In this document: piece by piece, positions 5,430 through 56,541 of the stretch
How positions within the stretch are numbered: position 1 is the first letter of the stretch
How the letters are laid out: every line of letters starts with the position of its first letter
Assembly (NCBI GenBank): GCA_965279035.1
Contig: OZ257142.1
Coordinates: forward strand, 556,491 to 620,490
Source of the DNA: Bacteroidia bacterium
GTDB taxonomy: Bacteria > Bacteroidota > Bacteroidia > M30B66
Reading direction: 5' to 3'
DNA: 64,000 nt
The notes under the pieces: generated by a model
Database searches by the model: none
What the model was told of the DNA's origin: nothing
The model's input: the letters and a program-made list of their open reading frames with translations, nothing else
Position numbers and translations under genes: made by a program

Positions 5430-5440
5430 GTTGTGGACAA

Positions 5441-15345: not shown

Positions 15346-15368
15346 AGGGAAACTGTAAAATTCGGAAT

Positions 15369-27075: not shown

Positions 27076-27078
27076 AGT

Positions 27079-27151
27079 GGAGAATACCGGATTCGAACCG
27101 GTCGCCTCTTGCCTGCCAGGCAAGCGCTCTAGCCAAATGAGCTAATTCCCC
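27079..27151 (-). tRNA. tRNA-Ala (anticodon GGC)
   Basis: Reverse complement GGGGAATTAGCTCATTTGGCTAGAGCGCTTGCCTGGCAGGCAAGAGGCGACCGGTTCGAATCCGGTATTCTCCA. It forms a cloverleaf with G3:U70, anticodon loop CTGGCAG and a T-arm GGTTCGAATCC. CCA is not encoded. Confidence 0.85.
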
Positions 27152-31259: not shown

Positions 31260-31265
31260 GGGAAA

Positions 31266-31991: not shown

Positions 31992-31997
31992 GGTGGC

Positions 31998-32453: not shown

Positions 32454-32475
32454 GATGGTTGGGTTTTACATGAAA

Positions 32476-33897: not shown

Positions 33898-33912
33898 GGT
33901 GTGGGTTGGGTT

Positions 33913-35142: not shown

Positions 35143-35154
35143 AGCTGCTGTTTT

Positions 35155-35325
35155 TTACTGTTCGTCTTGCTCAAATGGGAGATTTTCCATGATTGCTACT
35201 TCTTGTTTGCTGGTGTTAAATACATGCCATAACAGCGCAATAAAGAACAAGAAGAAGATTGTTAGTGAGATCATCGGGAAGATGTCGACACCTGCAATCG
35301 TTGAGAGATAATTAATGAATTTCAT
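35155..35325 (-). CDS. ccoQ: cbb3-type cytochrome oxidase subunit CcoQ (56 aa, not in the supplied ORF track)
   Basis: Translated by hand as MKFINYLSTIAGVDIFPMISLTIFFLFFIALLWHVFNTSKQEVAIMENLPFEQDEQ. It is a single-TM peptide between ccoNO and ccoP. Confidence 0.7.
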   Translation of the reverse strand: MKFINYLSTIAGVDIFPMISLTIFFLFFIALLWHVFNTSKQEVAIMENLPFEQDEQ

Positions 35326-35345
35326 GACGAATCAGGTTGGGTTGA

Positions 35346-37502
35346 TTAAGGCTTGGTTGTAGCAATTTGACCAAAGACAATTTTGTTCTCTCCTTTGATG
35401 TCTGTTCCAAGTCGTTGCAAGTAGGAAATCATGGCGATGATTTCTTTGTTAGGCAAGGCTTCGATACCAGACTCTTTAAGGTTATTTACAATTTTGTTTT
35501 GTTGGCGAACCAAGTCTTGGTTAGCAATCTTATCATAGCCTTCAGGATAAGGTACACCCAAAGTCATCATAGCACGAATTTTAGGAGCAGTTGATGTAGT
35601 ATCTAAATCATCGTCAAGTAACCAAGGATACATTGGCATGATTGAACCTGGTGACATGGTACGAGGATCATCCATGTGGTTGTAGTGCCAGCTATCAGGA
35701 TATTTTCCTCCTTCTCTTTGCAAATCTGGACCTGTACGTTTTGATCCCCACTGGAATGGATGGTCATAAACATATTCTCCAGCTTTTGAATATTCACCAT
35801 AACGTTCTGTTTCGAAACGGAATGGACGAATCATTTGGCTGTGACAAGTGTAACATCCTTCACGAACATAAATATCACGACCTTGAAGTTCAAGTGGAGT
35901 GTAAGGTTGAACAGAAGCAATTGTTGGAATATTACTCTTAATCAAGAATGTTGGAATCATTTCAACTAAACCACCAATCAGAATCATGATTAAGCTGAAC
36001 AATAGCATTTGAAATGGCTTACGTTCAATTACACGGTGCCATCCTTCTGAAGCTTGGTGACCTGGAGTTGCGCCTTTTGGAAGTGGAGCAGCTTCGGCAG
36101 CTTCGTTTGCAATGAATTTACCAGCAAATGCTGTTTTCCATAAGTTGTAAATCATTACCAAGAAACCAACTAAGTATAACGTACCACCTAAAGAGCGAAG
36201 CGCATACATTGGAATCAATTGAGTTACTGTTTCCAAGAAGTTTGGATAACGTAGGAATCCATCAGCAGTAAACTCTCTCCACATTTCGAACTGAGTTAGA
36301 CCAGCCCAATAAAGTGGAATCGCATAGAACATGATTCCAAGTGTGCCAATCCAGAAATGGAAGTTGGCTAGTTTTTTAGAGAAAAGTTCACGGCCATAGA
36401 AGCGTGGGAATAACCAGTATAGCATACCAAAGGTTAACATACCGTTCCATCCTAAAGCCCCCACGTGAACGTGTGCTATAATCCAATCGGTAAAGTGAGC
36501 AATCGCATTTACGTTTTTCAACGAAAGCATTGGTCCTTCAAACGTCGACATACCATAAGCAGTGATTGCCACTACCATGAACTTCAATACCACATCTTCA
36601 CGAACTTTATCCCAAGCTCCACGAAGTGTCAATAATCCGTTAATCATACCACCCCAACTTGGAGCGATCAACATAAAGGAGAATACTACCCCTAATGATT
36701 GAGCCCAATCAGGAAGTGCTGTATATAACAAGTGGTGAGGACCAGCCCAGATATATAAGAAAATAAGTGCCCAGAAGTGGATAATCGATAGACGGTAAGA
36801 GTAAACCGGACGACCAGCTGCTTTTGGTACGAAATAGTACATTAAACCTAAGTAAGGAGTAGTAAGGAAAAATGCCACCGCATTGTGACCATACCACCAC
36901 TGAACCAAAGCATCCTGAACACCTGCGTATGCACTGTAGCTTTTCAAGAAACTTACAGGAAGTTCCATTGAGTTAACAATGTGTAATACCGCTACTGTTA
37001 CGAAGGTTGCGATGTAGAACCAAATCGCTACATATAAGTGTTGCACCCGGCGTTTAACAATGGTTCCGAACATGTTAATCCCGAAAACCACCCAGATTAA
37101 TGCAATTGCAATATCGATTGGCCATTCGAGTTCGGCATATTCCTTACCAGTTGTGTAACCCAATGGTAAAGTAAGAGCAGCTGCAAGAATGATTAATTGC
37201 CATCCCCAGAAGTGAATGTTACTTAATGCATTACTAAACATTCGGGCTTTTAAAAGCCTTTGAAGTGAATAGTAAACACCTGCAAATATTCCGTTTCCTA
37301 CAAAAGCGAAAATTACCGCATTCGTATGCAGCGGTCTAAGTCGGCCAAATGTAGTTAAGGGAAAACCCAGGTTAAGGTTCGGGAATACGAGCTCCAGCGC
37401 GATGTAAAGTCCTACAAGCATTCCAATTAATCCGAAGATTATGGATGCTACAGCGAAGTTTCGCGGGGTTCGGTTGTCGTACTCAAAACGTTCTAGTTCC
37501 AT
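35346..37502 (-). CDS. ccoNO: cbb3-type cytochrome c oxidase fused subunits I+II (CcoN-CcoO)
   Basis: 718 aa with a heme-copper oxidase N-terminal domain fused to a C-terminal mono-heme cytochrome c (CYTCHS). Confidence 0.9.
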   Translation of the reverse strand: MELERFEYDNRTPRNFAVASIIFGLIGMLVGLYIALELVFPNLNLGFPLTTFGRLRPLHTNAVIFAFVGNGIFAGVYYSLQRLLKARMFSNALSNIHFWGWQLIILAAALTLPLGYTTGKEYAELEWPIDIAIALIWVVFGINMFGTIVKRRVQHLYVAIWFYIATFVTVAVLHIVNSMELPVSFLKSYSAYAGVQDALVQWWYGHNAVAFFLTTPYLGLMYYFVPKAAGRPVYSYRLSIIHFWALIFLYIWAGPHHLLYTALPDWAQSLGVVFSFMLIAPSWGGMINGLLTLRGAWDKVREDVVLKFMVVAITAYGMSTFEGPMLSLKNVNAIAHFTDWIIAHVHVGALGWNGMLTFGMLYWLFPRFYGRELFSKKLANFHFWIGTLGIMFYAIPLYWAGLTQFEMWREFTADGFLRYPNFLETVTQLIPMYALRSLGGTLYLVGFLVMIYNLWKTAFAGKFIANEAAEAAPLPKGATPGHQASEGWHRVIERKPFQMLLFSLIMILIGGLVEMIPTFLIKSNIPTIASVQPYTPLELQGRDIYVREGCYTCHSQMIRPFRFETERYGEYSKAGEYVYDHPFQWGSKRTGPDLQREGGKYPDSWHYNHMDDPRTMSPGSIMPMYPWLLDDDLDTTSTAPKIRAMMTLGVPYPEGYDKIANQDLVRQQNKIVNNLKESGIEALPNKEIIAMISYLQRLGTDIKGENKIVFGQIATTKP

Positions 37503-37509
37503 GGCAACG

Positions 37510-37701
37510 TCAATGTTTAGGGATTGGTTGGGTTGAAGGTGTTTCTTTCTTAGGCTCTATGGCTTCATCATCAAATAGCATTCGCACAGATGGTGTGTAA
37601 CTGTCGTCGAACTGACCTTTTTTCACCGACCAAAGGAAGGCTGCTAAAAAGGCAAGTGCTACGCAAATGCTGATAAAAATTAGTACATAGAGTGCGCTCA
37701 T
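37510..37701 (-). CDS. ccoS: cbb3-type cytochrome oxidase maturation protein CcoS
   Basis: 63 aa with LYVLIFISICVALAFLAAFLWSVKKGQFDD, the CcoS/FixS signature. Confidence 0.85.
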   Translation of the reverse strand: MSALYVLIFISICVALAFLAAFLWSVKKGQFDDSYTPSVRMLFDDEAIEPKKETPSTQPIPKH

Positions 37702-37820
37702 AAGGAGGAGCTAATTGGGATTTCTAATAGTGTCAAAAATAGACCTGTGTTAAAAGGTGTTAAATGATGCGAGTCAGGTGGGAATATGATTTTAGTCAGG
37801 TTTTATATGGGTATTTCTAC

Positions 37821-40244
37821 TCACAAATTTTTCTTCCTAGCTATTAGCGTAGAACTTAGTGTAGCAATTGAGACAATACTTATGGATGTTACAGGCATAA
37901 GTATGGCGGCAATTACGGGTTGTAGCTCACCTCGAACTGCGAACCATAATCCTACACAGTTATATAATAGCGAGATGGCAAAGCTTACAGCGATTACTCG
38001 TTTACCACTTTTACAATAATCCAATAGCGTGTTTAGTCGAGATAAAATCTTCCCATCCAAAATCGCATCGCAGGCTGGAGAAAAGTTGTTCAGATTATCC
38101 GATACCGCAATTCCCGCATCACTTTGTTGTAAAGCACCGGCATCATTCAATCCATCACCCAACATCAAAACTGTTTTGCCTTCATCTTGAAGTTTGCGGA
38201 TGAAGTTGAGTTTGTCTTCAGGTGATTGTTTGAAGTGCATTTGATTCGGCTCAAACCATGAGCTCAATTGCTGACGATCCGAATCGGTATCTCCACTCAA
38301 CAAATACATGTCGTACTTGCGGCCTAAGCGACTTAATAATGTAGGAAGTTGATCGCGTAGCTGATGTTGAAGGGTATAAAAACCACACGATTCACCATTG
38401 ATTCTTAAGTAAATCCGAGTCGTGTTAAGCTTTTCTTCCAATAACTCTTGATTGGTAAATGATGCTGATCCAACTTGAACCATCATCCCGTTTACCATTC
38501 CTTGGATTCCTTTACCCGAAAATTCACTGAAGTCGCTTACTACCAAACGTTCGTTACCCTGATACGATGCTGCTATGCTGCTACTTAAAGGATGTGTTGA
38601 TTGCAGCACCAATGAATACACAGCAGTGATTTCATCTTTCGTTAGCTGTCTTCCTTGGAAAGTCACTTCCGCATCTCGACTTAAAGTAATGGTGCCAGTT
38701 TTATCAAAGACAATCGTATCGGCTTTCGCCATTTTTTCAATCACAAAAGCATTCTTGAGGAAGAATCCATTTCGTCCTAAAATGCGGAGTACGTTTCCAT
38801 TCGCAAAGGTGGATGCGAGGAGCAAAATACACGGACAAGCCACAATCAAAATGGTGGTTACCGCATTCATCATTCGATGAGTTTCTCCCGCCCAAAGCCA
38901 ATAGGATGCTGAAGCAAGCGCCACAATAAAAATCCCCAGCGTAAAATACTGGTTGATTTTATTTTCCATGGATGCTTTCTCTTCTTCGGCTTGGTCTTTT
39001 CGGAAAGCAGGACTATTCCATAATTGGGTGAGGTAGCTTTGTTTAACGGGTTTAACAATTTCAAGCTCGATGCTCGTGCCCGATTGTCGCCCGCCGGCAT
39101 AAACTAAATCTCCTTTTTTACGAATGATAGGATCTGATTCACCGGTAACAAAACTGTAATCCACTTTTGCCTCACCACGCAAAAGAATCGCATCAGCAGG
39201 AACTATTTCCTGATTACGAATCAACATGCGCATCCCCTTTTTAATTCGAGTTACTGGAATTTGTTCTTCTCCCGAATCGGAGATAACAGTTACTGCTACT
39301 GGGAAATACGATTTATAATCACGGTCAAATGCTAATGTTTCGAAGGTTCTATTTTGGAATGCCCGTCCAATTAGCATAAAAAACACGATGCCTGTCATGG
39401 AATCGAAATATCCTGGCCCAGTTCCGCTCAAGAGTTCGTAAACACTTCTGAGAAAGGTCATTAATACTGCAGCTGCAATAGGTAAATCGATGTTAAGGTG
39501 TTTGCTGCGTATGGCTCCAATTCCCGAGATAAAAAAGTCACGACTGCTATAAAAAAGCACAGGAAGTGAAAGGGCAAAATTGAGCCAGCTAAAGGTGAGT
39601 TTCAAATCAGCATTTCCAGCTACTTCACCAATGGAGAAGTATTCAGGAAAACTCATCATCATAATATTACCAAAACAAAAACCGGCGATCCCGATTTTAT
39701 ACCATTGGCTCCGATCGACTTTTATGGCTTGTTTGTCTTCGATATCGTTTAAGCTGATATGCGGTTCATAACCAATCATGGTCATTCGTTCGGCAATTTT
39801 GCTCAAACTGGTTTCTGCTTGTTGGAAGATAACGGTTACCTCACGCTTAGGGAAGTTGACCGAAGAACTTATCACACCTTTTTCTAATCTTTGCAAGTTT
39901 TCAAGCAACCAAATACAGGAACTACAATGAATTCCTGGGACGAAAAAGGTAATGTGAGATTGTTTGTCGTTTGTAAAATGAAGGAGTTTGTTGCTCACTT
40001 CCGCTTGATCGAGGTAAGAGAATTTACCTGTGTAATTGGCTTTGTCAGGTGAATTTCCGGAGGATGGATTGAGTGTATAATAGCTACAAAGATTGTTTTC
40101 GTTTAGAATTTCGAATACCAATCGGCAGCCATCGCAACAAAATGCTTTGTCTTCAATCCATGTTGTAGTTTCCTTACAATTTTCTCCACAATGATAACAA
40201 TGGAGATCGGTTCTGATTTTGGGCTCACTCGTTTTGGGTAACAT
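37821..40244 (-). CDS. ccoI: Copper-translocating P-type ATPase (CcoI/FixI)
   Basis: 807 aa with N-terminal CxxC metal-binding regions, CPC (VACPCIL), DKTGT and GDGLNDAGAL. Confidence 0.9.
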   Translation of the reverse strand: MLPKTSEPKIRTDLHCYHCGENCKETTTWIEDKAFCCDGCRLVFEILNENNLCSYYTLNPSSGNSPDKANYTGKFSYLDQAEVSNKLLHFTNDKQSHITFFVPGIHCSSCIWLLENLQRLEKGVISSSVNFPKREVTVIFQQAETSLSKIAERMTMIGYEPHISLNDIEDKQAIKVDRSQWYKIGIAGFCFGNIMMMSFPEYFSIGEVAGNADLKLTFSWLNFALSLPVLFYSSRDFFISGIGAIRSKHLNIDLPIAAAVLMTFLRSVYELLSGTGPGYFDSMTGIVFFMLIGRAFQNRTFETLAFDRDYKSYFPVAVTVISDSGEEQIPVTRIKKGMRMLIRNQEIVPADAILLRGEAKVDYSFVTGESDPIIRKKGDLVYAGGRQSGTSIELEIVKPVKQSYLTQLWNSPAFRKDQAEEEKASMENKINQYFTLGIFIVALASASYWLWAGETHRMMNAVTTILIVACPCILLLASTFANGNVLRILGRNGFFLKNAFVIEKMAKADTIVFDKTGTITLSRDAEVTFQGRQLTKDEITAVYSLVLQSTHPLSSSIAASYQGNERLVVSDFSEFSGKGIQGMVNGMMVQVGSASFTNQELLEEKLNTTRIYLRINGESCGFYTLQHQLRDQLPTLLSRLGRKYDMYLLSGDTDSDRQQLSSWFEPNQMHFKQSPEDKLNFIRKLQDEGKTVLMLGDGLNDAGALQQSDAGIAVSDNLNNFSPACDAILDGKILSRLNTLLDYCKSGKRVIAVSFAISLLYNCVGLWFAVRGELQPVIAAILMPVTSISIVSIATLSSTLIARKKNL

Positions 40245-40258
40245 GTGGCAATTGGGAT

Positions 40259-40849
40259 TTAATCATCATTACTTCTCGATATCTTCCCTACTAAGGCAAG
40301 ACTGCTCAACTTCATTACTTCGGCTTCTAGCTCGATGATTTTAGGAAATAGATTTATTTTTTCTCGCTCAAGATTCTGAAGAAAGTCATTGTTGAATTCT
40401 TTGAGTTCTGCAAAACACAACTTCAACAATTCATCAGAATTCAATGGAGGATGGAAATTATTTGTAAGTCGTTTTATAGAATGTAAGAGCGCTTCGATGT
40501 GCGTATGTTCCTCTTGTATTCGACGAATGCTGCTTTCCATTAAGCGAACATTCAAAAAGCGGATAGGCTCTGGGTTTTCCTTTATTTCGATGAGTTTGCG
40601 AACAAAAGGGAATAGACTGTTTTCTTCTTGAACAATGAGTAGATTAACCTTGACTTCGATTTGTTCTAGTAAGGAAACTAAATCTTGTAAATGGATAGCA
40701 TAATTCAAATTGCCTTTTGAAGCGGATTTGAAATTTCGAGCCATCAATTTCAACATCGATTTCGACATAGCATGATGACGACTTTCTATAAAGTCGAGCA
40801 AATCAGCTTCGCCAATGGATGAAAAATTTATGTGGTTGAAACTTCGCAT
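40259..40849 (-). CDS. Hypothetical protein, possibly hemerythrin-like, associated with the cco cluster
   Basis: 196 aa with several His/Glu-rich helices (SRHHAMSK, EEHTHIEALLHS). The assignment is tentative. Confidence 0.5.
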   Translation of the reverse strand: MRSFNHINFSSIGEADLLDFIESRHHAMSKSMLKLMARNFKSASKGNLNYAIHLQDLVSLLEQIEVKVNLLIVQEENSLFPFVRKLIEIKENPEPIRFLNVRLMESSIRRIQEEHTHIEALLHSIKRLTNNFHPPLNSDELLKLCFAELKEFNNDFLQNLEREKINLFPKIIELEAEVMKLSSLALVGKISRSNDD

Positions 40850-40949: not shown

Positions 40950-40990
40950 AAAAAGCCGCTTTCCAATGAAGGAAAGCGGCTTTAAAAAAA
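40950..40990 (-). terminator. Strong rho-independent terminator downstream of the FG-GAP T9SS gene (12-bp stem AAGCCGCTTTCC/GGAAAGCGGCTT)
   Basis: Read directly. It separates the T9SS pair from the cco assembly genes. Confidence 0.75.
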
Positions 40991-41003: not shown

Positions 41004-43871
41004 TTATTGAATCACAACGCGAATTACTTTGCTAGCATCTTTAGAAGAAACTCGTAGCATATAAATACCTGCTTGAAGCTCATTCACAGCAAGTGTTCCA
41101 TTCATATTGATATTTTGTTCTTTCACAATTCTGCCTGTTGCATCCATCAACGAAACACGCCCATTAGTAATTGAAGTGCGGATATTCAAATTCATATCTG
41201 CTGGATTCGGAAATACAGAAAGAGTTGTTGTTGAATTTAGTTCGATTCCAGTAGTATTATCAACCGTTACAGAAACAGCATGTGCATCACTTGAGCAATA
41301 AGTAGGAGCTTGTTCAATGCTGATATTGTAGTAGTAGAAATAATATTGATTTCCATAAGTATTGCTGGTGATTGAAGCTAAATCTCCAATTAAATATGGA
41401 TAAGTAACAAGCGTATTGCTGTTTTCACGTTGAAGGCGAGGACTATTTTGACTTAATGTAGATTGATTAACACTCACATCAGGAAGTAAATAAAATCCAG
41501 TACCTACTGTAAGGTCAAAATTAGCATTGATCACATTTGTTCCACTTACAAGCGTTGCTGTAACTGAATTTAATAGAGTATTGCTGCTATTGTATAAATC
41601 GAATTTACGTGGACCAGGAGTATCAGTGTAAACAGTAAACGAACGAAGTGTTGAAACTTTGAATACATCAAAATACACTTTTGAATTCGTTGTAGTTGCT
41701 CCAAATTGATTGGATGTTAATGGTGTTACAATTCCACCATTGTCAATTCCACCACCATATCCATTCACATTGACAACATAATAAGTAGCTGTTGTAGTTA
41801 CTTCAGGTGTTGTAAAGCTATTTCCAGTTCCCAAAAGAGTACCTCCAATAGCATCGTACCATTGAATGCTATCTCCTGTTGCTGTTAAAGTGGCACTACC
41901 TGGAGTTGGTAAAGTTACATTGTCTGCAACCGCTTGATTAGGAGTTAATTCAGTAACATTAATTGCTGAAGATGTAAATGTTGAACAAGCTCCTTGTATT
42001 GTTAAAGTGTAGGTACCTGATTGATCAACAGTTGTTGTATTAGTACCTGTTGTTCCATTGCTCCAAGAATATCCGTTTAAGCCTGTTGGTGCTTGAAGTA
42101 CGACAGAACCACCATTACAAAATGTAGTTTCGCCAACTGCAGAAATAGCGGGTGTTTCATCTGGCGATAATGTTACTGTAATTGTTTTTGAAACTGAATT
42201 ACAAGCATTATTTGAAGTTTGTAATACTCGCACATTGTATTCTCCAGCTGCTGTAATATTAGCTGTTTGGCTTGTAGATCCATCAGACCACAAATAATCA
42301 AATCCTTGTGGAGCTGTTAAAGCAAGTGTTTGTCCTTGACATAGAACATAATCTCCAGCAGTTGTGATAATTGCCTCAGGAGCAACACACACATTTTCTC
42401 TAACCGATAAAAATTGATCTACCTGTGGGTTAAGAATTACTTGAGAAGCGCCAGACGGCCAGCTAATTACTACAGAATCAATAGCTGTGTTTGTTCCAAG
42501 TCCAAAGTGTAAGATGGAAGTATTTACAGCACCATAGCCTTCGCCAGTGCGAACTTCTCGCATTTGAACTCCCCAAGCACCGTAAATTTTAGCACGTGCA
42601 CCAACTGCACCTAAATTACTAACAGTTCCTTCCAAATCGAGGTTGAAAAAGTGCTTACCTGATGTAGATCCATTCATCCAAATCACATCATTCACCGAAG
42701 ATGGAGTTGTATAAATGCTCGCATAACTACCATAAATATCAACAGCACCGTCGTGATTCAAATCACCAATTCCAAATGACTCCATGCTGTTGTTGTCGAA
42801 TGTTCCGTTGATACGAGTAAATGTACTGTTCCCATTATTATGATAAAAACGAGATGAACTTCCTGCAACCAAGATATCCACAAATCCATCATTGTCGAAA
42901 TCTTCCATTACCGACTGAATTGGAGTGATATCAGAAAGAACTACTCCTGCAGTTGCAGAAATATCTGTGTAATGACCAGTTCCGTCGTTTTGAAATATTT
43001 GACTTTCATGGTCATGATTAGTCAACAAAAGATCTAAGTCAGAGTCATTATCAATATCACCGAAGCTTGCAGTCCAAGTTTGCCAAAAGCAATTCAAATT
43101 GTAAGAAGCAGCATCTTCAGTGAATGTACCATCGCCATTGTTTACAAACATTACGTTTACACGACGAGGATCTGAACCATCAGTAACAGATGAACTTTGA
43201 CGACATTTTGCAATGTATAAATCTAAGTCGCCATCGTTATCGAAATCGGTCCAAACACTACCATAATTACCTGAATCCATTGGATCGCCACCAATATTTC
43301 CTGGGTGAAGTGTAAAGTTGATAGTAGTGGTTGAAGGAACTAATCCTCCAGATCCATTATTTAAGTAAATGTGTGCAGGATTGTTGTCGTCGCACACAAA
43401 AAGATCTTCCCAGCCATCATTATTAAAGTCAGCTGATGTTACGTTTTGAACGAAATAACTACCGGCTAAATTGCTAACAGTACCAGTCATTCCATCGTTA
43501 CTAATCATCATAATTTTTGGCTGAGAACTGCTTCCTGCCATGATGTCTTTGTAGCCATTGTGATCAAAGTCAGCAACGCACATAGCCCAAGCCCATCCTG
43601 AACTTGAACTAAAATCACCTAAATAACGAGTTTCAAAAGTTTGATTTGTACGTTGAATTTCAACATAAGCCGAACGACCATATTTTAGACGAACAATGTC
43701 ATCCAATCCGTCGTTGTTCCAATCGATAACTGCAACAGGGCAGCCGCTCGTAAATGCTGGAGTGTTTAATTTAGCATTGGCATTTGTGAATTGAAATTGA
43801 GCTTGAACAGAAGCAGCAGTTCCAACGACGAACAAACACAAAGCGGCAATGCGATGTAAAGATGTTTTCAT
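41004..43871 (-). CDS. FG-GAP/VCBS repeat (CRTAC1-like) secreted protein with T9SS type A C-terminal sorting domain
   Basis: Signal peptide, repeated DxNNDGxxD FG-GAP motifs, and C-terminal FPNPADMNLNI...GIYMLRVSSKDASKVIRVVIQ. Confidence 0.85.
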   Translation of the reverse strand: MKTSLHRIAALCLFVVGTAASVQAQFQFTNANAKLNTPAFTSGCPVAVIDWNNDGLDDIVRLKYGRSAYVEIQRTNQTFETRYLGDFSSSSGWAWAMCVADFDHNGYKDIMAGSSSQPKIMMISNDGMTGTVSNLAGSYFVQNVTSADFNNDGWEDLFVCDDNNPAHIYLNNGSGGLVPSTTTINFTLHPGNIGGDPMDSGNYGSVWTDFDNDGDLDLYIAKCRQSSSVTDGSDPRRVNVMFVNNGDGTFTEDAASYNLNCFWQTWTASFGDIDNDSDLDLLLTNHDHESQIFQNDGTGHYTDISATAGVVLSDITPIQSVMEDFDNDGFVDILVAGSSSRFYHNNGNSTFTRINGTFDNNSMESFGIGDLNHDGAVDIYGSYASIYTTPSSVNDVIWMNGSTSGKHFFNLDLEGTVSNLGAVGARAKIYGAWGVQMREVRTGEGYGAVNTSILHFGLGTNTAIDSVVISWPSGASQVILNPQVDQFLSVRENVCVAPEAIITTAGDYVLCQGQTLALTAPQGFDYLWSDGSTSQTANITAAGEYNVRVLQTSNNACNSVSKTITVTLSPDETPAISAVGETTFCNGGSVVLQAPTGLNGYSWSNGTTGTNTTTVDQSGTYTLTIQGACSTFTSSAINVTELTPNQAVADNVTLPTPGSATLTATGDSIQWYDAIGGTLLGTGNSFTTPEVTTTATYYVVNVNGYGGGIDNGGIVTPLTSNQFGATTTNSKVYFDVFKVSTLRSFTVYTDTPGPRKFDLYNSSNTLLNSVTATLVSGTNVINANFDLTVGTGFYLLPDVSVNQSTLSQNSPRLQRENSNTLVTYPYLIGDLASITSNTYGNQYYFYYYNISIEQAPTYCSSDAHAVSVTVDNTTGIELNSTTTLSVFPNPADMNLNIRTSITNGRVSLMDATGRIVKEQNINMNGTLAVNELQAGIYMLRVSSKDASKVIRVVIQ

Positions 43872-43933: not shown

Positions 43934-45880
43934 TTAGTCGGATGTTAAAAGAATTCGTTGAGTGTAATTTTTTCCAATTGCTTGAACTTGGATTACATAT
44001 ACTCCGGCTGCTTTTGCGCCTTTAATATGCCAACTATTGTCAGCATTTTTTTTCCATTGAATTGGAACTTCTTGTCCCGAAATAGTAAACATTCGAATTG
44101 CTTGCGGTTTCAAAGAAAAACGCATGTTAATTCCACTCGAAATGCTGGCAGGATTTGGATAAAATACAGGAGCCTTTACATTCAACGCATCTGCATATAA
44201 AGGACTAATCAATTCGGTTAAACTATCGCCCGCAACAAGAACTGGTTTGTTGTCGGATGCATCAAACATGGTTAAAAATGAATTTATTTCAGAAGCATCC
44301 AAGGTGCGCATCTCCGAAAGCCAAGCAGGAGGAACTGTTTGATAATAAACTTTGGCAGTTGTTTTAAATGCACCACTATATCCTTGAAGTGAAACGCGAT
44401 AATGAATGATATCTTTTCCTGTTCCTTGTGTTGTGCCTGCTAAATTGAAATCGGGGTCTGAAGCTGCTTCTCCAACAATTTGAACAGTATCGTAAGATGC
44501 ATGTTGAGTCGAGAATCCAAGTGGTGGAATACGATTATCTTTCAAATGAACATCGGCTCTCTCGAGAATTGTTGTGAAATCACCATTCACATCTCCCATA
44601 TTCATTTCGTAAATCTGAACCTGATTTTCAGCATGAATCACATCATGATGAGGCTCCACAAATCCACCATAATTCACGATTTCGCCACTTTGATCAAATG
44701 TTCCTGAACGGAATAAGGTATCGCCAGCTTCTGTCGTTACTACAAATTCTACAAATGCTCTTCGAGATGGATAGCCACTTGGGAATTTATGTCCTGATTT
44801 ATTGGTTAACATTAATTCAAATCCAACACTGTCATCAAAAAATACAGGATCTGATAATTCAGCCTTCAACGTATTGTATCGTAAATTACGTGTGATAGTT
44901 GAAATGGTCGAATCGAAATTTGCTTCATTGGCGATAATACCCAGAGCATCTTTATTTCTACGAATTAAATCAACCATGAAACTATTCGCGCCAGCAAAAC
45001 TGTGTTGATTAAAAGGACTTCTTCCCAACAATGCCGTATAGCCAACAGCAATTTTAACGGGATCTTCCACTTGAGGCATGTGGCAGGTTTGACAGGTTTT
45101 TCCTTGTCCGGGATAACTCGAATTGAGCCATTCCTGAAAAGTAGCTTGTTCAACAAAAGTGCTTCCAGTGGGAACGCCTTGTAAATCGACAGTATGCGAT
45201 ATTAAAGTGTGACAAGGAGAGCAAAATCTTCCTTGACTAACATGTTCGCTGTATGTTGGGGTGAAATTTACGTACAACTGCATTGGTCCAAAAAAAGGAT
45301 TGATAAATGGGCCATACGCAACACGGTTTGTATCATACGGAATATCTCCTGTAAATCGACTACCTAAGCCATTCGTTCCTATCGCGTGGCAGCCAAGGCA
45401 TCCAACACCTGATAATCCGAGTGAATCATCTTGAAGATCTTCTAAAGTATAATGATCTGCCCCTTTAAAGAAAGCCGAAAAATGCCCCATTGGAGCGTGA
45501 CAATCGGTACATAAATTTTGAAGTTCAATGGCATGTGCTGGATTGGTCAAAACCTCTTGTCGAACCTTTGCTTTCCATAATGGATCAACACCGGCAAGTC
45601 CCATCATGGATGTTTCCCAATCATCGAAAAGATTAATGTCCACACCATCGAGCGTCACATTGGCTAGTCCTTGAGGATCGCGTCCATGGCATCCTTTACA
45701 GCGAGATGCGGGAAGAAAAATGGCAGTAGTATCAATACTGCGACTATGCATTTTAAGTAAAGCTTGAAAATGTCTGTTCGTGAGACTTTCTGGTTTTTCT
45801 GAACTCTCTCGTCCGGTAAGAGACACCGCTGCAAGCACGAACAAAAAAAGCGTACCAATGATGAGTAAACGTTTTTTCAC
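43934..45880 (-). CDS. Pentaheme c-type cytochrome with T9SS type A C-terminal sorting domain
   Basis: Signal peptide, five CxxCH motifs (CKGCH, CTDCH, CLGCH, CSPCH, CQTCH) in the N-terminal ~270 aa, a ~300 aa domain of unknown function, and C-terminal FYPNPASISSGIN...GVYVIQVQAIGKNYTQRILLTSD. Confidence 0.85.
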   Translation of the reverse strand: MKKRLLIIGTLFLFVLAAVSLTGRESSEKPESLTNRHFQALLKMHSRSIDTTAIFLPASRCKGCHGRDPQGLANVTLDGVDINLFDDWETSMMGLAGVDPLWKAKVRQEVLTNPAHAIELQNLCTDCHAPMGHFSAFFKGADHYTLEDLQDDSLGLSGVGCLGCHAIGTNGLGSRFTGDIPYDTNRVAYGPFINPFFGPMQLYVNFTPTYSEHVSQGRFCSPCHTLISHTVDLQGVPTGSTFVEQATFQEWLNSSYPGQGKTCQTCHMPQVEDPVKIAVGYTALLGRSPFNQHSFAGANSFMVDLIRRNKDALGIIANEANFDSTISTITRNLRYNTLKAELSDPVFFDDSVGFELMLTNKSGHKFPSGYPSRRAFVEFVVTTEAGDTLFRSGTFDQSGEIVNYGGFVEPHHDVIHAENQVQIYEMNMGDVNGDFTTILERADVHLKDNRIPPLGFSTQHASYDTVQIVGEAASDPDFNLAGTTQGTGKDIIHYRVSLQGYSGAFKTTAKVYYQTVPPAWLSEMRTLDASEINSFLTMFDASDNKPVLVAGDSLTELISPLYADALNVKAPVFYPNPASISSGINMRFSLKPQAIRMFTISGQEVPIQWKKNADNSWHIKGAKAAGVYVIQVQAIGKNYTQRILLTSD

Positions 45881-45946
45881 ATTCTTGAAATATAAAATCT
45901 TGGAGATAAGGTTTGAATTGATTTATAGATTGAAAATCAACACTAC

Positions 45947-46657
45947 CTAATCGTAAATGTTTGCTGCCTTTACTAATTGCTGATGATTTAGAATAGAAAT
46001 GCGTTTTCCATTCAAAGCAATTACTTGATCATTCTTCAATTCACTCAATAATCGGATAGCTGTTTCGGTGGCAGTTCCCACAATGTTTGCAATATCTTCA
46101 CGACTAAGAGTAACACTTATTGTAACTCCATCTTGATCTAGACCATAGGTTTGTTGCAAATAAAGCAAAGCTTCTGCAACCCTTTCTCTTACTGGCTTTT
46201 GAGCTATATCTGTAATGCGGTGTTCGGCATGTTTTAAATCTTCAGAAAGAAGTTTCATCAATTGCATTGATAAAACACCGTTGCCTTCAACCAGTTTTAA
46301 AAAGGAAGATTGTGGAATAAAACAGATTTTACAATCATCTAGAGCTTCAGCACTGGAAGAATATTTATCGCCACTTAAAAGAGCTCGATATCCTAAAATA
46401 TCTCCACCACGAGCCAACCTTACAATTTGCTCTTTCCCTTCATCTCCAATACGAAAAATCTTGATTTTCCCATCGTTCACACAATAAAGACCGTGTGGAT
46501 ACGAACCCGCATTAAATATTATTTGACCTTTTTTGAAATTGCTACAGCCCTTCGTTTCATTTAAAGCCTCTAAATCATGACCATGTAAGTCACAAAAAAC
46601 GGAACGCGATCTATTTGAACAATGCTCACAATCAGGTTGGTCGTTCTTTCGAAGCAT
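45947..46657 (-). CDS. fnr: Crp/Fnr family transcriptional regulator with N-terminal Cys cluster (FnrL-like oxygen sensor)
   Basis: 236 aa with N-terminal C-x2-C-x8-C (DCEHCSNRSRSVFC), a cNMP-binding fold and a C-terminal HTH. Confidence 0.8.
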   Translation of the reverse strand: MLRKNDQPDCEHCSNRSRSVFCDLHGHDLEALNETKGCSNFKKGQIIFNAGSYPHGLYCVNDGKIKIFRIGDEGKEQIVRLARGGDILGYRALLSGDKYSSSAEALDDCKICFIPQSSFLKLVEGNGVLSMQLMKLLSEDLKHAEHRITDIAQKPVRERVAEALLYLQQTYGLDQDGVTISVTLSREDIANIVGTATETAIRLLSELKNDQVIALNGKRISILNHQQLVKAANIYD

Positions 46658-50516: not shown

Positions 50517-51368
50517 TCAAAGTAAATTGAGAGAATGACGTATGTAAGAACTCAGAATGAGCGAATATTTTCGTGCATTTGGAATTCGAATTCGTTCTTC
50601 AAGTACGCGATTGGGAGAGGAATTGATGATTTTTTTATACAAGGCGAAATAGTAAACGTATGCTACATAAACACCAAAGCGAGCTCCTTTGGGGAGTCCT
50701 TTAATTCCATTATATCCATCGGAAAAATCTTTGAGAATGTCTTCTTCGATAGCACGTTTATTCTCTTCAGTAAATTCGCTCATGTTTAAATGAGGGAAAT
50801 ACACTCTTCCGAGAGTATGATAGTCATTGTGTAGGTCACGTAGAAAATTGATTTTTTGAAAAGCAGAACCAAGCCTCATAGCTGGGTTTTTGAGTCTTTC
50901 GTACATCGATTGACTTCCTTCGCAAAAAACGCGTAAACACATTAAGCCAACTACTTCTGCCGAACCTAAAATGTATTTTTCGTATGCAGCCTGATCGTAT
51001 TGTACTTTTTCAAGATCCATTTCCATGCTTTTTAGAAATGTATCAATCAGTTCATCTTCGATCCCATAGTGATTAACCGTTTGCTGAAAACTATGCAGTA
51101 TAGGATTCAAACTAATTCCCCTACGTATAGCGAGAAATGTATCTCTTCTAAATTCTTCAATTAAAAGGGAAGCATCAGAACGATTGAAACTATCTACAAT
51201 TTCATCAGCAAATCGAACAAATGCGTAGAGTGTATAAACAGGATCTTGGAACCGTTTTGAAAGTGACTTTATTCCAAGTGTGAAAGAAGTACTATACCGA
51301 TGTGTTGTAAATCGACTGCAGCGAAGACTTACAAAATTGTAATCGATCATAGGTCCGTTGTTTTTCAA
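50517..51368 (-). CDS. crtB: Phytoene/squalene synthase family protein (probable phytoene synthase)
   Basis: 283 aa with the isoprenoid synthase Asp-rich motifs YAFVRFADEIVD and a trans-IPPS head-to-head fold. Confidence 0.85.
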   Translation of the reverse strand: MKNNGPMIDYNFVSLRCSRFTTHRYSTSFTLGIKSLSKRFQDPVYTLYAFVRFADEIVDSFNRSDASLLIEEFRRDTFLAIRRGISLNPILHSFQQTVNHYGIEDELIDTFLKSMEMDLEKVQYDQAAYEKYILGSAEVVGLMCLRVFCEGSQSMYERLKNPAMRLGSAFQKINFLRDLHNDYHTLGRVYFPHLNMSEFTEENKRAIEEDILKDFSDGYNGIKGLPKGARFGVYVAYVYYFALYKKIINSSPNRVLEERIRIPNARKYSLILSSYIRHSLNLL

Positions 51369-51393
51369 TCGAATTTAAGAGTCGTTGCCCTAC

Positions 51394-51900
51394 TTATTTA
51401 TTATATCCTTTTAACATCGACATTAATTGACGACGCGCTAAGAAAATTCTGCTTTTTACAGTACCAATAGGTAGATCTAAATAATCAGCTATTTCCTTGT
51501 ATTTATAGCCATCGAAATACATATTAAATGGAACCCGATATTCATCTTGTAGCATTTCAATTTTCTTCAAAATTTCACGTTCAGAGTACTTTGACTCTGG
51601 GGCGAAACTTTGCGTTTGTTGAGGAATATTGAGGAAATACAAATCTTTTGTTGAATCAACAATTGTATTCGTTTTAACTGCTCTACGATAATTATTAATA
51701 AAGATGTTTTTCATGATGGTATACAACCATGCTTTCAAATTTGTTTTTTCAACAAATCGATGGCGGTTGCTGATTGCCTTCAGCAGCGTTTCTTGAAGAA
51801 GGTCTTTTGCTTCTTCATCATTGGAGGTAAGGTTTAATGCAAAGTATTTTAAGGGCTTGCTTAAACTCAAAACTTCGGAGTTGAATTCAAATGCTGACAT
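51394..51900 (-). CDS. RNA polymerase ECF-type sigma-70 factor
   Basis: 168 aa with sigma-70 region 2 (LLQETLLKAI, YTIMKNIFINNYRR) and region 4 (IADYLDLPIGTVKSRIFLARRQL). Confidence 0.85.
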   Translation of the reverse strand: MSAFEFNSEVLSLSKPLKYFALNLTSNDEEAKDLLQETLLKAISNRHRFVEKTNLKAWLYTIMKNIFINNYRRAVKTNTIVDSTKDLYFLNIPQQTQSFAPESKYSEREILKKIEMLQDEYRVPFNMYFDGYKYKEIADYLDLPIGTVKSRIFLARRQLMSMLKGYNK

Positions 51901-52086
51901 CTCGTTTTGTTTAATCTTTGAACAAATGTATTAAACATTATGGGATAATCAACATTCTGTTTAAGAATTAACTTAAAATACATGTACCAACATATATGAA
52001 ATTCAAGATTAACCATGTAAATAGCTTAACATCAATAAAATAGATTCAACTGAAAAAATGTTAAATTTCATTTTAGGCCATTAAAA

Positions 52087-52120
52087 AATGCTATTGAAGG
52101 CAAAAGTTCTTCAATAGCAT
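52087..52120. terminator. Perfect 13-bp inverted repeat AATGCTATTGAAG-N8-CTTCAATAGCATT; terminator of the carH-like gene and/or operator in the sigma-crtB promoter region
   Basis: Read directly. It is 46 nt past the carH stop and followed by a T5 run on the minus strand. Confidence 0.6.
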
Positions 52121-52165
52121 TCGAAAAATTGTTGATTCTATGATTAGATTATTTAAACAGAGAGT

Positions 52166-53071
52166 TTATTTCTTTTGCTCTGCAATTTCAATTAAGTCGA
52201 AAACAGATTTGATATTTGTTACATTTTTCCAATGGAACTTAATTTCGCAGGTTTGTGCGCCAGCAACTAGAAGCTTAGTGCTTCCAATTAAACCAGAGAT
52301 TTTATCGATATATGCTACGATAGAATCTGGTGAATAAGCAGCCGTAAAAAATGTCAAAATGTACTTTGGATGGTATTTGTTGCAATAGCTTAAAACATCT
52401 TCAAGCGGAACAGTTTGTCCTAAATAAATTACTCGTTTTCCTCTTACTTTTAATATGTATTTTGAAAACAAGAGCCCGATTTCGTGTAATTCTCCATCGG
52501 GAAGATACAAGAGCCAATCATCAGCATCTGGAGCAGCCACACCCGAATAACCATCCACTGCTACAAGGATTTTTTTGCGAATCATGTTGGTCATGAAATG
52601 CTCTTGAAAAACACTTGCTTCTCCAGTTCTCCACATGATTCCCACTTTTTGTAAAAATGGAATGAGAATGTTGAGCATCGTTTGTTCAAACCCATATTTT
52701 AGGGAACTTGTACTTATTACTTTTTCAAAACGAGCCTCATCCAATTCAATCATAGCAATGACTAAACTATCGGTCTGCGCTTCAAAAAAATGATCAATCG
52801 AAACAGGATGTTGAACCATATCCTGAATTCGTTTGCAAATTTCATCCTGATTGAGTTTAACCAAATGAGATATTTTTCCTCCATGACGAATCAATAAGGA
52901 AATGTTCAATAGAATTTTTAACTCTTGATCGTTGTATAAGCGAATGTTTGTATCGGTTCTGTCGGGATTTAGCAAATTGTAGCGTTGCTCCCATATGCGA
53001 ATCGTATGTGCTTTTATTCCGGAAAGACGCTCCAGATCTTTTATTGTATATTTTGAAGTCATTGAATGCAT
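52166..53071 (-). CDS. carH: MerR family transcriptional regulator with C-terminal cobalamin (B12)-binding domain (CarH/LitR-like light sensor)
   Basis: N-terminal MerR HTH (YTIKDLERLSGIKAHTIRIWEQRY) and a C-terminal B12-binding Rossmann-like domain (GELHEIGLLFSKYILKVRGKRVIYLG). Confidence 0.8.
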   Translation of the reverse strand: MHSMTSKYTIKDLERLSGIKAHTIRIWEQRYNLLNPDRTDTNIRLYNDQELKILLNISLLIRHGGKISHLVKLNQDEICKRIQDMVQHPVSIDHFFEAQTDSLVIAMIELDEARFEKVISTSSLKYGFEQTMLNILIPFLQKVGIMWRTGEASVFQEHFMTNMIRKKILVAVDGYSGVAAPDADDWLLYLPDGELHEIGLLFSKYILKVRGKRVIYLGQTVPLEDVLSYCNKYHPKYILTFFTAAYSPDSIVAYIDKISGLIGSTKLLVAGAQTCEIKFHWKNVTNIKSVFDLIEIAEQKK

Positions 53072-56448: not shown

Positions 56449-56541
56449 GGAATTCGGGATTGGAAAGATAAGGATTCCAACGAATGGCGCTTCGAATTGT
56501 TGGAAAGCAAAAACGGGAAGCAAATGCCCCCCGTTTTGTAC

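Follow-up and report, generated by a model that had tools for sequence, protein, structure and literature searches.

A pentaheme c-type cytochrome of the PHC superfamily with a predicted type IX secretion sorting domain in a Bacteroidia bacterium

The Cytochrome Gene and Its Surroundings

The window, the whole 64-kb stretch of DNA that was analyzed, encodes a protein that is predicted to be a genuine pentaheme c-type cytochrome; its features are collected in Table 1 with those of the flanking genes. The gene boundaries are sound because close homologues of 636–660 residues cover 98–100% of the 648-residue product. An n-region and an h-region are visible by inspection in the N terminus, MKKRLLIIGTLFLFVLAAVSLTG, which lacks a lipobox Cys, and the CxxCH motifs lie at residues 61–267; the preliminary description of this DNA, which had reported a 648-residue protein with a Sec signal and five CxxCH motifs in about the first 270 residues, is borne out on the length and the motifs and agrees with the n-region and h-region that are visible. 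The 15 Cys and His positions of the heme motifs are all invariant among 125 homologues with identities as low as 29% and are therefore not chance cysteines, and sequence inspection found no Cys in the mature cytochrome beyond the five CxxCH motifs. The protein combines several conserved CxxCH motifs with a putative signal peptide, as is characteristic of multiheme c-type cytochromes.

Table 1. Features of the cytochrome gene and its immediate neighbors, in coordinates of the window
Feature	Coordinates	Strand	Residues	Basis or remarks
Crp/Fnr-family regulator, directly upstream of the cytochrome gene	45947..46657	-		Pfam cNMP_binding and HTH_Crp_2
Promoter-like site, TTCAAA-17-TATATT	45889..45917	-		9/12 consensus matches; within the 66 bp that separate the Fnr-like and cytochrome genes
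Pentaheme cytochrome gene, large PHC-type, with T9SS type A C-terminal domain (CTD)	43934..45880	-	648 aa	GTG start
Putative Sec-type signal peptide	45812..45880	-	1-23	Translation and inspection
Five-heme cap domain	45071..45718	-	55-270	Motif check and fold match to 5ZE8
CxxCH motif, CKGCH	45686-45700	-	61-65	Translated from coordinates
CxxCH motif, CTDCH	45497-45511	-	124-128	Translated from coordinates
CxxCH motif, CLGCH	45386-45400	-	161-165	Translated from coordinates
CxxCH motif, CSPCH	45209-45223	-	220-224	Translated from coordinates
CxxCH motif, CQTCH	45080-45094	-	263-267	Translated from coordinates
Helical linker and enlarged Ig-like beta-sandwich stem	44201..45070	-	271-560	H293; H411 insertion; KDNRIPPLGF at 447-456
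Conserved stem loop, GHKFPSGYPSRR	44759..44794	-	363-374	HMM alignments
Predicted T9SS type A C-terminal sorting domain	43937..44167	-	572-648	TIGR04183
Partner gene: FG-GAP beta-propeller, UnbV_ASPIC (CRTAC1-like), Ig_7 and T9SS type A CTD	41004..43871	-	955 aa	Pfam and NCBIfam
Terminator-like hairpin	40952..40983	-		13-bp stem with 7 G-C pairs, T-rich tail; 21 nt past the partner stop codon

The partner gene encodes a propeller protein that matches human CRTAC1 (9ETN) with an E value of 1e-6 and has a strong CTD of its own (45.9 bits, NCBIfam). No terminator-like site was found in the 62-bp gap between the two genes, and the hairpin beyond the partner probably ends a two-gene unit; from the arrangement of these elements, the cytochrome and the propeller look co-transcribed in the window. 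The scan that gave the promoter-like site used the sigma-70 consensus, from which Bacteroidota promoters differ. An FG-GAP/UnbV_ASPIC/CTD gene adjoins the cytochrome gene, in several orientations, in 34 of 84 Bacteroidota loci and is the sole recurrent partner among them, aside from RecF, DUF721-like, lumazine synthase, pyruvate kinase and M42 peptidase neighbors, which were discounted as housekeeping synteny. Outside the Bacteroidota, it was found in just two CTD-type loci of 82. The propeller is thus missing from about 60% of the Bacteroidota loci and from essentially all others and is therefore dispensable for the function of the family. CRTAC1-family genes have also been reported among the cytochrome-type genes of Planctomycetota (PMC12758564).

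The cytochrome gene lies between the Fnr-like regulator, which scores 114 bits against the NCBIfam Fnr subfamily model and is under its cut-off of 228, and a cbb3 oxidase cluster, a setting that would suit a cytochrome that, like MtrC/OmcA, exchanges respiratory electrons with the outside, as a terminal extracellular reductase of Fe(III)/Mn(IV) oxides, humics or electrodes or by electron uptake. A Cyc2-like fusion of a monoheme cytochrome and a beta-barrel, directly upstream in 4 of the 82 non-Bacteroidota loci, points in the same direction. However, the Fnr/cbb3 adjacency is not conserved: a locus encoding a 75%-identical relative (L003) shares the outer synteny (RecQ ... AspRS / cytochrome, propeller / amino-acid permease) but is without the Fnr gene and the entire hemerythrin-to-HemN block, and an Fnr-like gene is upstream in locus L005 but missing from L003 and from other loci. 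The neighborhood is lineage-specific, and it was rejected as a functional clue because L003 lacks both elements despite the same flanks. With one mismatch, the FNR box TTGAT-N4-ATCAA was found 11 times against 8.3 expected and not at all upstream of the cytochrome gene, whereas an upstream TTGAT-N13-ATCAA was discarded because its spacing is wrong; in the absence of a canonical box beyond chance, Fnr control of the cytochrome gene was dropped. Neither an outer-membrane or porin-cytochrome conduit nor a second multiheme cytochrome or periplasmic multiheme carrier nor a quinol dehydrogenase is linked to the gene in the 84 Bacteroidota loci, and the 82 others likewise show no linked conduit, second multiheme cytochrome or quinol dehydrogenase. 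A role in respiration of this type therefore appears unlikely on the genomic evidence, and the residues discussed below bear on it further.

Fold, Family, and Conserved Residues

An AlphaFold2 model built on the 125-sequence alignment has a mean pLDDT of 94.4 and a pTM of 0.83; an earlier model from 40 close sequences was set aside, the heme domain having a pLDDT of <50. The best Foldseek match is 5ZE8, the penta-heme cytochrome c552 of Thermochromatium tepidum (E 1.5e-16, target TM 0.70), and when compared with PDB sequences the family profile matches 5ZE8 with an E value of 7.5e-12 and MccSep (9WT8) with one of 2e-6. In the profile alignment, the five CxxCH motifs are co-linear with those of 5ZE8 and MccSep, and a stem loop of the pattern G/P-H-x-x-P-x-G-x-P is aligned across all three proteins. 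The predicted fold has the PHC organization, in which a helical cap with five hemes precedes a stem formed by an Ig-like beta-sandwich, and the cytochrome belongs, by fold and profile, to the PHC superfamily of T. tepidum c552 and MccSep/ExtKL. The earlier statement that the protein could not be placed in a known multiheme family is thus superseded, and the proviso that its CxxCH motifs should map to a heme-binding fold is answered by the match of the five-heme cap to 5ZE8 in the predicted structure. The domain of about 300 residues that had been described as of unknown function is real (about residues 271–560), but its fold is a known one: in view of the profile matches to 5ZE8 and MccSep, it is an enlarged Ig-like PHC stem. 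Identity with NrfA was rejected, the combination of a CxxCK active-site heme and an above-threshold match to Pfam Cytochrom_C552 not being found.

When clustered at 50% identity, the core family forms at least 2688 clusters; species-representative genomes contain at least 587 loci, of which the best 80 are all from Bacteroidota. Its members are annotated only as "T9SS type A sorting domain-containing protein" or "hypothetical protein." The nearest relatives include one from a lake-derived Flavobacteriales MAG (72% identity); in Chloroflexota members, the gene is a singleton amid unrelated genes. It has been proposed that the PHCs form a family in which hemes may be catalytic (PMC11976967).

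The sole biochemically characterized relative is MccSep, a pentaheme selenoprotein polysulfide reductase of Geobacter sulfurreducens that was described in 2026 and has its active site between heme 2 and the Ig-like stem loop, which carries the catalytic Sec (PMC13510729). The common fold, the homologous stem loop and the fact that NF040886 (ExtKL) is the best NCBIfam cytochrome model, with matches to 39 of 40 homologues, raise the question of whether the window protein is a similar sulfur enzyme at the cell surface, reducing polysulfide or selenite at the heme-2 site. However, the score against NF040886 is 30.6 bits as opposed to a cut-off of 250, and the MccSep family, which is periplasmic and found in Desulfobacterota and Nitrospirota, is reported to have the Sec/Cys residue as its defining feature (PMC13510729). 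In the HMM alignments, Tyr370 of the loop GHKFPSGYPSRR takes the selenocysteine position of the MccSep loop GHSIPDGUP, and Sec325, essential in MccSep, is replaced in the family by Tyr, Phe, Ile or His (among 125 sequences, position 370 is Y74/F33/I13/H4/L1, with Cys in none). The equivalent of the essential heme-ligating Cys239 is T241/F242, in a stretch where the alignment is weak, and there is no Cys outside the CxxCH motifs. With Tyr in place of the catalytic Sec and the heme-ligating Cys absent, the window protein is not an enzyme of the MccSep type, and sulfur chemistry of this kind is highly improbable.

Beyond the heme Cys and His, residues D99, P100, G190, E244, Q245, E250, S254, G297, N299, G363, H364, P367, R373, H411, D448, R450 and P453 are invariant in the 125 sequences, a set in which mean column identity is 22%; this pattern of conservation appears typical of a functional site. 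Two methionines may serve as heme ligands: position 93 is occupied by Met in 117 of 125 sequences (K3, H2, L2 and V1 in the rest) and position 200 in 124 (K1). The counterpart of M93 is the His of WKGSMH in 5ZE8 and that of WEQSIH in MccSep; since a His kept in the two solved relatives is thus exchanged for Met, some of the hemes are probably His/Met-ligated and of higher potential; at the least, Met in place of a distal His argues for one or more such hemes. His/Met hemes would be less suited to anaerobic metal respiration at low potential than to taking up electrons from extracellular donors or dehydrogenase-type partners and handing them to an oxidant. Together with H293, H364, H411 and H213 (88% conserved), the two methionines would suffice for five six-coordinate hemes, which would fit a pure electron carrier and not an enzyme. 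The axial ligands, a possible open heme site and the geometry of the putative pocket are all read from alignments.

These residues are relevant to a further interpretation, that the protein is a surface peroxidase resembling the di-heme peroxidases and MauG, which detoxifies reactive oxygen species or uses extracellular H2O2 to oxidize polymers. In bacterial cytochrome c peroxidases, whose genes (ccp) are often Fnr-regulated, Glu and Gln take part in catalysis, and the candidate Met ligands, the invariant Glu-Gln pair near the presumed active heme and the adjoining Fnr-like gene can be accommodated by such an enzyme; so can the isolation of the gene, as a self-contained enzyme would be expected to stand alone. 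Several Chloroflexota members also have faint precomputed matches to PF03150 (CCP_MauG), and MauG appears in the PDB search with E values of 0.1–0.3. But these similarities to CCP and MauG are all far under significance, the fold is that of the PHCs and the combination of a PF03150 match with a CCP fold was not found, the open heme site is an alignment-based proposal, and the Fnr-like neighbor is not conserved. A peroxidase role, in which a high-potential His/Met entry heme would serve a catalytic heme that opens upon reduction, is quite unlikely.

The same residues tell against respiration in the manner of MtrC/OmcA, since His/Met hemes, if correctly predicted, are unusual in low-potential metal reductases and the conserved polar non-ligand residues are more enzyme-like than conduit-like. 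A surface or extracellular location is predicted for the protein, as such a function would demand, and there is a weak sub-threshold similarity to MtrC/MtrF domains II/IV (PF22113, 22.4 bits versus 30), while among 40 close homologues, 7 match the OmcA/MtrC decaheme model TIGR03507 at E <= 0.001, the best of them with 2e-6. Identity with MtrC/OmcA was nonetheless rejected because there are five hemes rather than ten, the PF22113 and TIGR03507 scores are under threshold and there is no MtrAB-type conduit in any of the loci.

Predicted Export and Proposed Role

The C-terminal domain of the cytochrome scores 32.1 bits with TIGR04183 and passes its cut-off of 23, but its score with Pfam PF18962 (Por_Secre_tail), 20.8 bits, fails the gathering score of 27; when set against the earlier requirement that the domain should clear the thresholds of T9SS CTD models, it succeeds with one model and falls short with the other. 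TIGR04183 matches 40 of 40 close homologues at E <= 0.001, a precomputed PF18962 match is present in many homologues, and the family profile matches the NucA CTD chain 8GLK_D (E 4e-5). In the predicted structure, the beta-sandwich of the sorting domain resembles the CTDs bound in structures of the T9SS translocon. Judged by these profiles, it is a bona fide type A T9SS sorting domain that is conserved throughout the Bacteroidota clade, which upholds its original assignment as a Por/T9SS type A domain. Of 121 full-length representatives, the 34 nearest to the query have the CTD; it is missing from the remaining 87, and a lipobox-like signal is present in 31 of these. Within the core family, the predicted sorting domain is limited to the Bacteroidota clade, where it is kept across Flavobacteriales, Saprospiraceae and Chitinophagales at 36–78% identity. 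No core T9SS genes are present among the annotated ORFs of the window, and three other genes in it have such CTDs, so that a T9SS-containing organism is implied.

T. tepidum c552 is soluble and presumably resides in the periplasm. It might accordingly be argued that the window protein stays there as well and that its C-terminal beta-sandwich does not function as a secretion signal, an interpretation that draws on the missed Pfam gathering score and on the experimental finding that MccSep is periplasmic (PMC13510729). It is very improbable in view of the TIGR04183 matches and the close resemblance of the domain to translocon-bound CTDs, its retention as a clade-specific addition over such a range of identities, and the strong CTD of the adjacent partner.

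The most likely interpretation is that the protein serves redox chemistry, as an enzyme or a relay, at the surface or outside the cell and is not a classical conduit for metal respiration. We consider, with a probability of roughly 0.55, that the gene encodes a PHC member that is exported by the T9SS and works outside the cell as a redox enzyme or relay with the propeller. The precursor would cross the inner membrane by Sec, the five hemes would be attached in the periplasm, and the folded holoprotein, recognized through its type A CTD, would be moved across the outer membrane by the T9SS and then released or anchored at the cell surface. There it would act as an enzyme or electron relay whose working site may be the cap-stem interface, with the loop GHKFPSGYPSRR and E244, Q245, E250, S254, H411, D448 and R450 predicted to face the region that matches the heme-2 active site of MccSep. 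In the source lineage, it would work with the apparently co-transcribed, T9SS-tagged FG-GAP/CRTAC1-like propeller, which probably binds or presents a substrate or partner. The analysis shows the ORF, the heme motifs, the fold, the CTD, the distribution of the family and the gene pairing; that the protein is exported, how its hemes are ligated, that it interacts with the propeller, which way electrons flow and what kind of substrate is used are points that we infer. Against this interpretation, nothing encoded nearby would supply or accept the electrons that an extracellular cytochrome requires. The preliminary description had suggested extracellular redox chemistry in the form, for example, of metal or oxide reduction or of electron uptake. 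Some type of redox chemistry outside the cell is still the best interpretation; its respiratory forms are not supported, no outer-membrane conduit being linked to the gene in the 84 Bacteroidota or the 82 other loci.

Fusions found elsewhere in the wider family, to GSDH (a PQQ-type sugar dehydrogenase propeller), F5/8 type C, DUF642, dockerin, TSP3, Calx-beta, He_PIG and class I cytochrome c domains, occur in only a handful of 150 representatives and, as annotated, would support the theme of function outside the cell. A more specific proposal, made tentatively and with the odds somewhat against it, is that a T9SS-exported holo-pentaheme cytochrome and a co-secreted CRTAC1-like propeller form an extracellular oxidoreductase or electron-transfer module that represents the Bacteroidota's own route. 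If true, this route would be distinct from T2SS/Mtr-type and Gram-positive systems, and could feed or drain electrons in oxidative polymer breakdown, iron handling or extracellular respiration; Bacteroidota, which are major degraders of polymers in lakes, soils, sludge and guts, would gain a means of extracellular redox chemistry. It would also link two orphan families, the PHC cytochromes and the bacterial CRTAC1/UnbV_ASPIC propellers. In a bolder variant, secreted PHC units could polymerize into extracellular cytochrome filaments, an idea that arises from the proposal that the c552 fold is linked to AvECN, an archaeal nanowire (PMC11976967).

Comparison with Known Systems

The closest structural counterpart, the low-potential c552 of T. 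tepidum, has five CxxCH motifs in the same order as the window protein and a homologous stem loop (PHAMPTGAP versus GHKFPSGYP), but the two are just 16–21% identical. The window protein is about 120–160 residues larger, the additional parts being a helical linker that contains H293 and insertions of the stem that bear H411 and the KDNRxPPxGF motif; it has Met in place of the His of the W..S.H motif of c552 and Tyr in place of Ala in the stem loop. c552 is soluble and comes from a purple sulfur bacterium, whereas the window protein has a predicted T9SS CTD. MccSep/ExtKL (GSU2937-GSU2936) shares the PHC architecture, with the profile E value given above, but has Sec (U325) where the window protein has Tyr370 and a heme-ligating Cys239 that is missing from the latter, although the alignment there is weak; it is periplasmic and belongs to sulfur-reducing Desulfobacterota and Nitrospirota (PMC13510729), in contrast to the predicted extracellular protein from Bacteroidota.

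The large PHCs (lPHCs; GSU2801 and lPHCtX of cable bacteria) have a five-heme module larger than the small ExtKL type and a possible catalytic role (PMC11976967), and the window protein is like them as they are described. Unlike it, the lPHC of cable bacteria has truncated-haemoglobin domains and is periplasmic, and no lPHC has been described with a T9SS CTD (PMC11976967).

MtrC and OmcA of Shewanella are multiheme c-type cytochromes on the outer face of the cell, as is predicted for the window protein, to which they have a faint motif-level similarity. Their fold is a staggered-cross decaheme as opposed to a five-heme PHC cap and stem, their export is that of T2SS lipoproteins as opposed to a predicted T9SS CTD, and the Mtr genes sit with a porin-cytochrome conduit, whereas none is present in any locus of the window family that was examined.

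The known cargo of the T9SS consists of proteases, adhesins, nucleases and glycoside hydrolases, and a search of the literature for T9SS with multiheme or c-type cytochromes and extracellular electron transfer found no published report that links the two. The type A sorting domain of such cargo proteins as the gingipains, NucA, RemA and mirolase is also predicted on the window cytochrome, on the neighboring gene and on other genes of the window, but the passenger here is, unlike the reported cargo, a multiheme cytochrome, and a cargo loaded with five heme cofactors would widen the known range of proteins exported by this system.

Gene Product, Sorting Domain, and Fold

The gene boundaries of the window cytochrome are right, since homologues from a protein homology search are of the same size (636-660 aa), span 98-100% of its length, and reach identities of up to 78%. 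The five CxxCH motifs of the preliminary description are borne out, their coordinates having been verified and their Cys and His residues showing no variation across a 125-sequence alignment that reaches down to 29% identity. The N terminus, MKKRLLIIGTLFLFVLAAVSLTG, judged by eye, looks like a Sec signal and has no lipobox. The proposed T9SS type A C-terminal sorting domain (CTD) is upheld by one model but not by the other: the terminal ~75 residues score 32.1 bits against TIGR04183, the curated T9SS type A model (cut-off 23), but 20.8 bits against the Pfam sorting-domain model, below its gathering score of 27. The domain is taken to be real because 40 of 40 close homologues match TIGR04183 and the family profile matches the NucA CTD chain of a T9SS translocon structure (8GLK_D, E 4e-5).

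Cytochrome matches from Pfam and NCBIfam are marginal: Cytochrome_C7 scores 25.4 bits, slightly over its cut-off, the MtrC/MtrF domains II/IV model stays under its cut-off, and the ExtKL model NF040886 and Cytochrom_C552 reach 30.6 bits (cut-off 250) and 13.9 bits (cut-off 24.1), respectively. Searching PDB sequences with the window cytochrome alone gave no significant match; a 40-homologue profile weakly matched Thermochromatium tepidum c552 (5ZE8) and Geobacter MccSep (ExtKL, 9WT8) through a motif in the C-terminal half, and a 125-sequence profile matched them at E 7.5e-12 and 2e-6, respectively, with the five heme motifs co-linear in the alignment. The heme domain was poor in an AlphaFold model built from 40 close sequences; the model from 125 diverse sequences has a mean pLDDT of 94.4, and its top PDB match, by a wide margin, is 5ZE8 (Foldseek E 1.5e-16, target-normalised TM 0.70). 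The profile matches and the Foldseek result together give the protein a pentaheme-cytochrome (PHC) architecture, in which a five-heme helical cap is joined to an Ig-like beta-sandwich stem, as described for MccSep (PMC13510729); the stem with its linker is larger than in 5ZE8 through insertions. The PHC family, as proposed (PMC11976967), includes ExtKL, GSU2801, cable-bacteria PHCs, and T. tepidum c552.

This match to a pentaheme structure with co-linear motifs supersedes two earlier statements: the protein can be assigned to a known multiheme family, and its ~300-aa "domain of unknown function" corresponds to the PHC stem and a helical linker. The comparisons establish a conserved pentaheme protein of PHC fold with a conserved T9SS sorting domain, and the probability that the window cytochrome is a T9SS-tagged member of the PHC family is put at roughly 85-90%.

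Features of the window and of four compared non-Bacteroidota metagenome loci (L147, L150, L165, L166)
Feature	Position	Strand	Details
SufC-SufD-SufS operon	2861-6196	-	
Protein weakly similar to Flavobacterium BamH component	14012-15544	-	74 bits, cut-off 420
ORF, 547 aa	21363-23006	-	NCBIfam scan: nothing at E <= 1e-5
Predicted T9SS cargo	23103-25028	+	641 aa; beta-propeller repeats; type A Por_Secre_tail
tRNA-Ala(GGC), single	27077-27151	-	
Microaerobic respiration block, complete	29898-40849	-	hemerythrin-like, CcoI copper ATPase, fused CcoN-CcoO (718 aa), CcoP with FixP_N, CcoG, FixH, DsbD_2 membrane protein, oxygen-independent HemN
Propeller gene	41004-43871	-	955 aa; FG-GAP, UnbV_ASPIC (CRTAC1-like), Ig_7, strong T9SS CTD
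Window cytochrome gene	43934-45880	-	GTG start; 648 aa
Heme motifs of window cytochrome	residues 61-65, 124-128, 161-165, 220-224, 263-267		CKGCH, CTDCH, CLGCH, CSPCH, CQTCH
Fnr/Crp-type regulator	45947-46657	-	upstream of cytochrome gene
MerR-family regulator with B12-binding domain (CarH-like)	50517-53071	-	near phytoene/squalene synthase and LytB/IspH
Predicted T9SS cargo	53830-56523	-	897 aa; CHU_C (type B) sorting domain
Monoheme class I cytochrome c with beta-barrel-like domain	L147 2906-5926		
Same	L150 4464-5627		
Same	L165 4820-5962		
Same	L166 210-1382		

Putative Active-site Region and Candidate Heme Ligands

MccSep is a periplasmic polysulfide reductase in which C239 makes heme 2 His/Cys-ligated and the stem loop, GHSIPDGUP, carries a selenocysteine (U325) into the distal pocket; the enzyme can dispense with neither residue (PMC13510729). 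The counterpart loop of the window cytochrome is GHKFPSGYPSRR (residues 363-374), of which G363, H364, P367, and R373 are invariant in the family alignment, but Tyr370 occupies the selenocysteine position (family tally Y74/F33/I13/H4/L1), C239 corresponds, in a weakly aligned stretch, to T241/F242, and there is no Cys beyond the heme motifs. An enzyme of the MccSep type is ruled out because equivalents of both the Cys and the selenocysteine are missing, and their absence also makes sulfur chemistry a disfavored reading.

The cap-stem interface shared with MccSep is clearly under strong constraint. In an invariance tally over 125 sequences (mean column identity 22%, heme Cys and His excluded), E244, Q245, E250, and S254, immediately past the position equivalent to C239, are invariant, as are D99-P100, G190, and G297/N299, together with H411, D448, R450, and P453 within stem insertions that small PHCs lack. 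Candidate distal ligands are M93 (117/125), M200 (124/125), H293 (124/125), H364 and H411 (both 125/125), and H213 (110/125). M93 aligns with the His of a W..S.H motif (WKGSMH in 5ZE8, WEQSIH in MccSep) and is replaced by Lys (3), His (2), Leu (2), or Val (1); Lys and His can also ligate heme. We infer that in at least one heme bis-His ligation has given way to His/Met, a change expected to raise that heme's potential, and that an open heme site may be present; the candidate Met ligands suggest function at moderately high potential. Peroxidase-type chemistry is a rival reading.

Family Distribution and Genomic Context

When representatives at 50% identity were searched exhaustively, 2688 clusters matched at E <= 1e-3, and 561 still did at E <= 1e-30. 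The top 150 representatives include 121 full-length five-heme proteins; of these, the CTD is present in the 34 closest to the window cytochrome (median length 646 aa) and absent in 87 (median 601 aa), 31 of which have a lipobox-like signal; it is thus a clade-specific gain on an old, widespread core. A one-genome-per-species scan found at least 587 loci, the best 80 of which are Bacteroidota MAGs throughout (Flavobacteriales, Crocinitomicaceae, Saprospiraceae, Lewinellaceae, and Chitinophagales); one clade without CTD comes from Chloroflexota (Anaerolineales), where the cytochrome gene stands alone. Database names are limited to "T9SS type A sorting domain-containing protein" or "hypothetical protein". 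Some members outside the window (P0187, P0197, P0260, P0194, P0238, P0263, P0223) are fusions, with GSDH-type (PQQ) sugar dehydrogenase propellers (two, one additionally with an F5/8 type C domain), DUF642 plus TSP3 plus dockerin, Calx-beta (two), He_PIG, or class I cytochrome c. Such domains are typical of surface or extracellular proteins and fit a family that acts on the cell surface or outside it and is in some cases wired to a dehydrogenase; the fusions are possible clues to partners and location.

The regulator, cytochrome, propeller, and hemerythrin-to-HemN genes share one strand. The cytochrome and propeller genes look like a single transcription unit apart from the cbb3 cluster, because a promoter-like site lies immediately upstream of the cytochrome gene, no terminator-like site was found in the 62-bp gap between the two, and a hairpin (13-bp stem, T-rich tail) lies 3' of the propeller gene; co-transcription is thus probable. 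Their pairing is established by comparison: the propeller gene adjoins the cytochrome gene in 34 of 84 Bacteroidota loci, in downstream, upstream, or convergent placement, and most of the closest relatives (identity ~44% or more) have it; it is the only recurrent neighbor, the remainder being housekeeping synteny. Among 82 loci of CTD-less relatives, it is confined to two, both actually of the CTD type. CRTAC1-family FG-GAP genes have also been reported from Planctomycetota, where clusters of cytochrome-type hydrazine-synthase homologues contain them (PMC12758564), so the propeller-cytochrome association may be a broader one.

The Fnr/cbb3 neighborhood is not conserved. The homologous locus L003 (74-75% identity) keeps the outer synteny and lacks the Fnr gene and the hemerythrin-to-HemN block, of which a hemerythrin remnant of 38 residues is all that is left; this suggests recent loss there or gain in the window. 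L005 has the Fnr gene. A pattern search found no FNR box beyond chance expectation; the gap between the regulator and cytochrome genes (45881-45946) holds TTGAT-N13-ATCAA, inverted FNR-type half-sites at non-canonical spacing. Elsewhere in the window, the region of the CarH-like regulator resembles a carotenoid unit under light or B12 control, which is conserved in L003.

Among the loci of CTD-less relatives, some have two-component systems nearby, and in 4 of 82 a gene fusing a monoheme cytochrome to a beta-barrel adjoins the cytochrome gene, directly upstream or divergent. The barrel part has a weak Phenol_MetA_deg match, the protein has an aromatic C terminus, and the layout is like that of Cyc2-type fused cytochrome-porins.

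Proposed Function and Relation to Known Systems

In the proposed mechanism, Sec would export the cytochrome apoprotein, hemes would be inserted in the periplasm, and the folded cytochrome would pass through the T9SS, which moves folded cargo, to work outside the cell. The chances are about even that it serves outside the cell as a redox enzyme or relay and has the propeller for a partner in this lineage. The initial proposal of metal or oxide reduction or electron uptake, that is, classical extracellular respiration, lacks support, since none of the 166 loci has a conduit or further cytochrome linked to the gene. At the cap-stem interface, catalysis or specific docking seems more likely than the role of a generic electron wire because polar residues near the MccSep-equivalent site are strongly conserved, the cytochrome gene is stand-alone, and fusions join the core to dehydrogenases and to modules that bind carbohydrate or belong to the cell surface.

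In the searchable literature (titles and abstracts), no report joins the T9SS with multiheme cytochrome cargo, and neither the large Met-containing, Tyr-loop PHC branch nor the pairing of PHCs with CRTAC1-like propellers is described. The T9SS sorting signal is already known, as is the fold, from one structure with no assigned function (5ZE8) and from a single enzyme whose characterisation appeared in 2026. The T9SS-tagged PHC cytochrome, with its predicted mechanism, is not categorically new beside these systems and is a good, testable lead in the extracellular redox biology of Bacteroidota.
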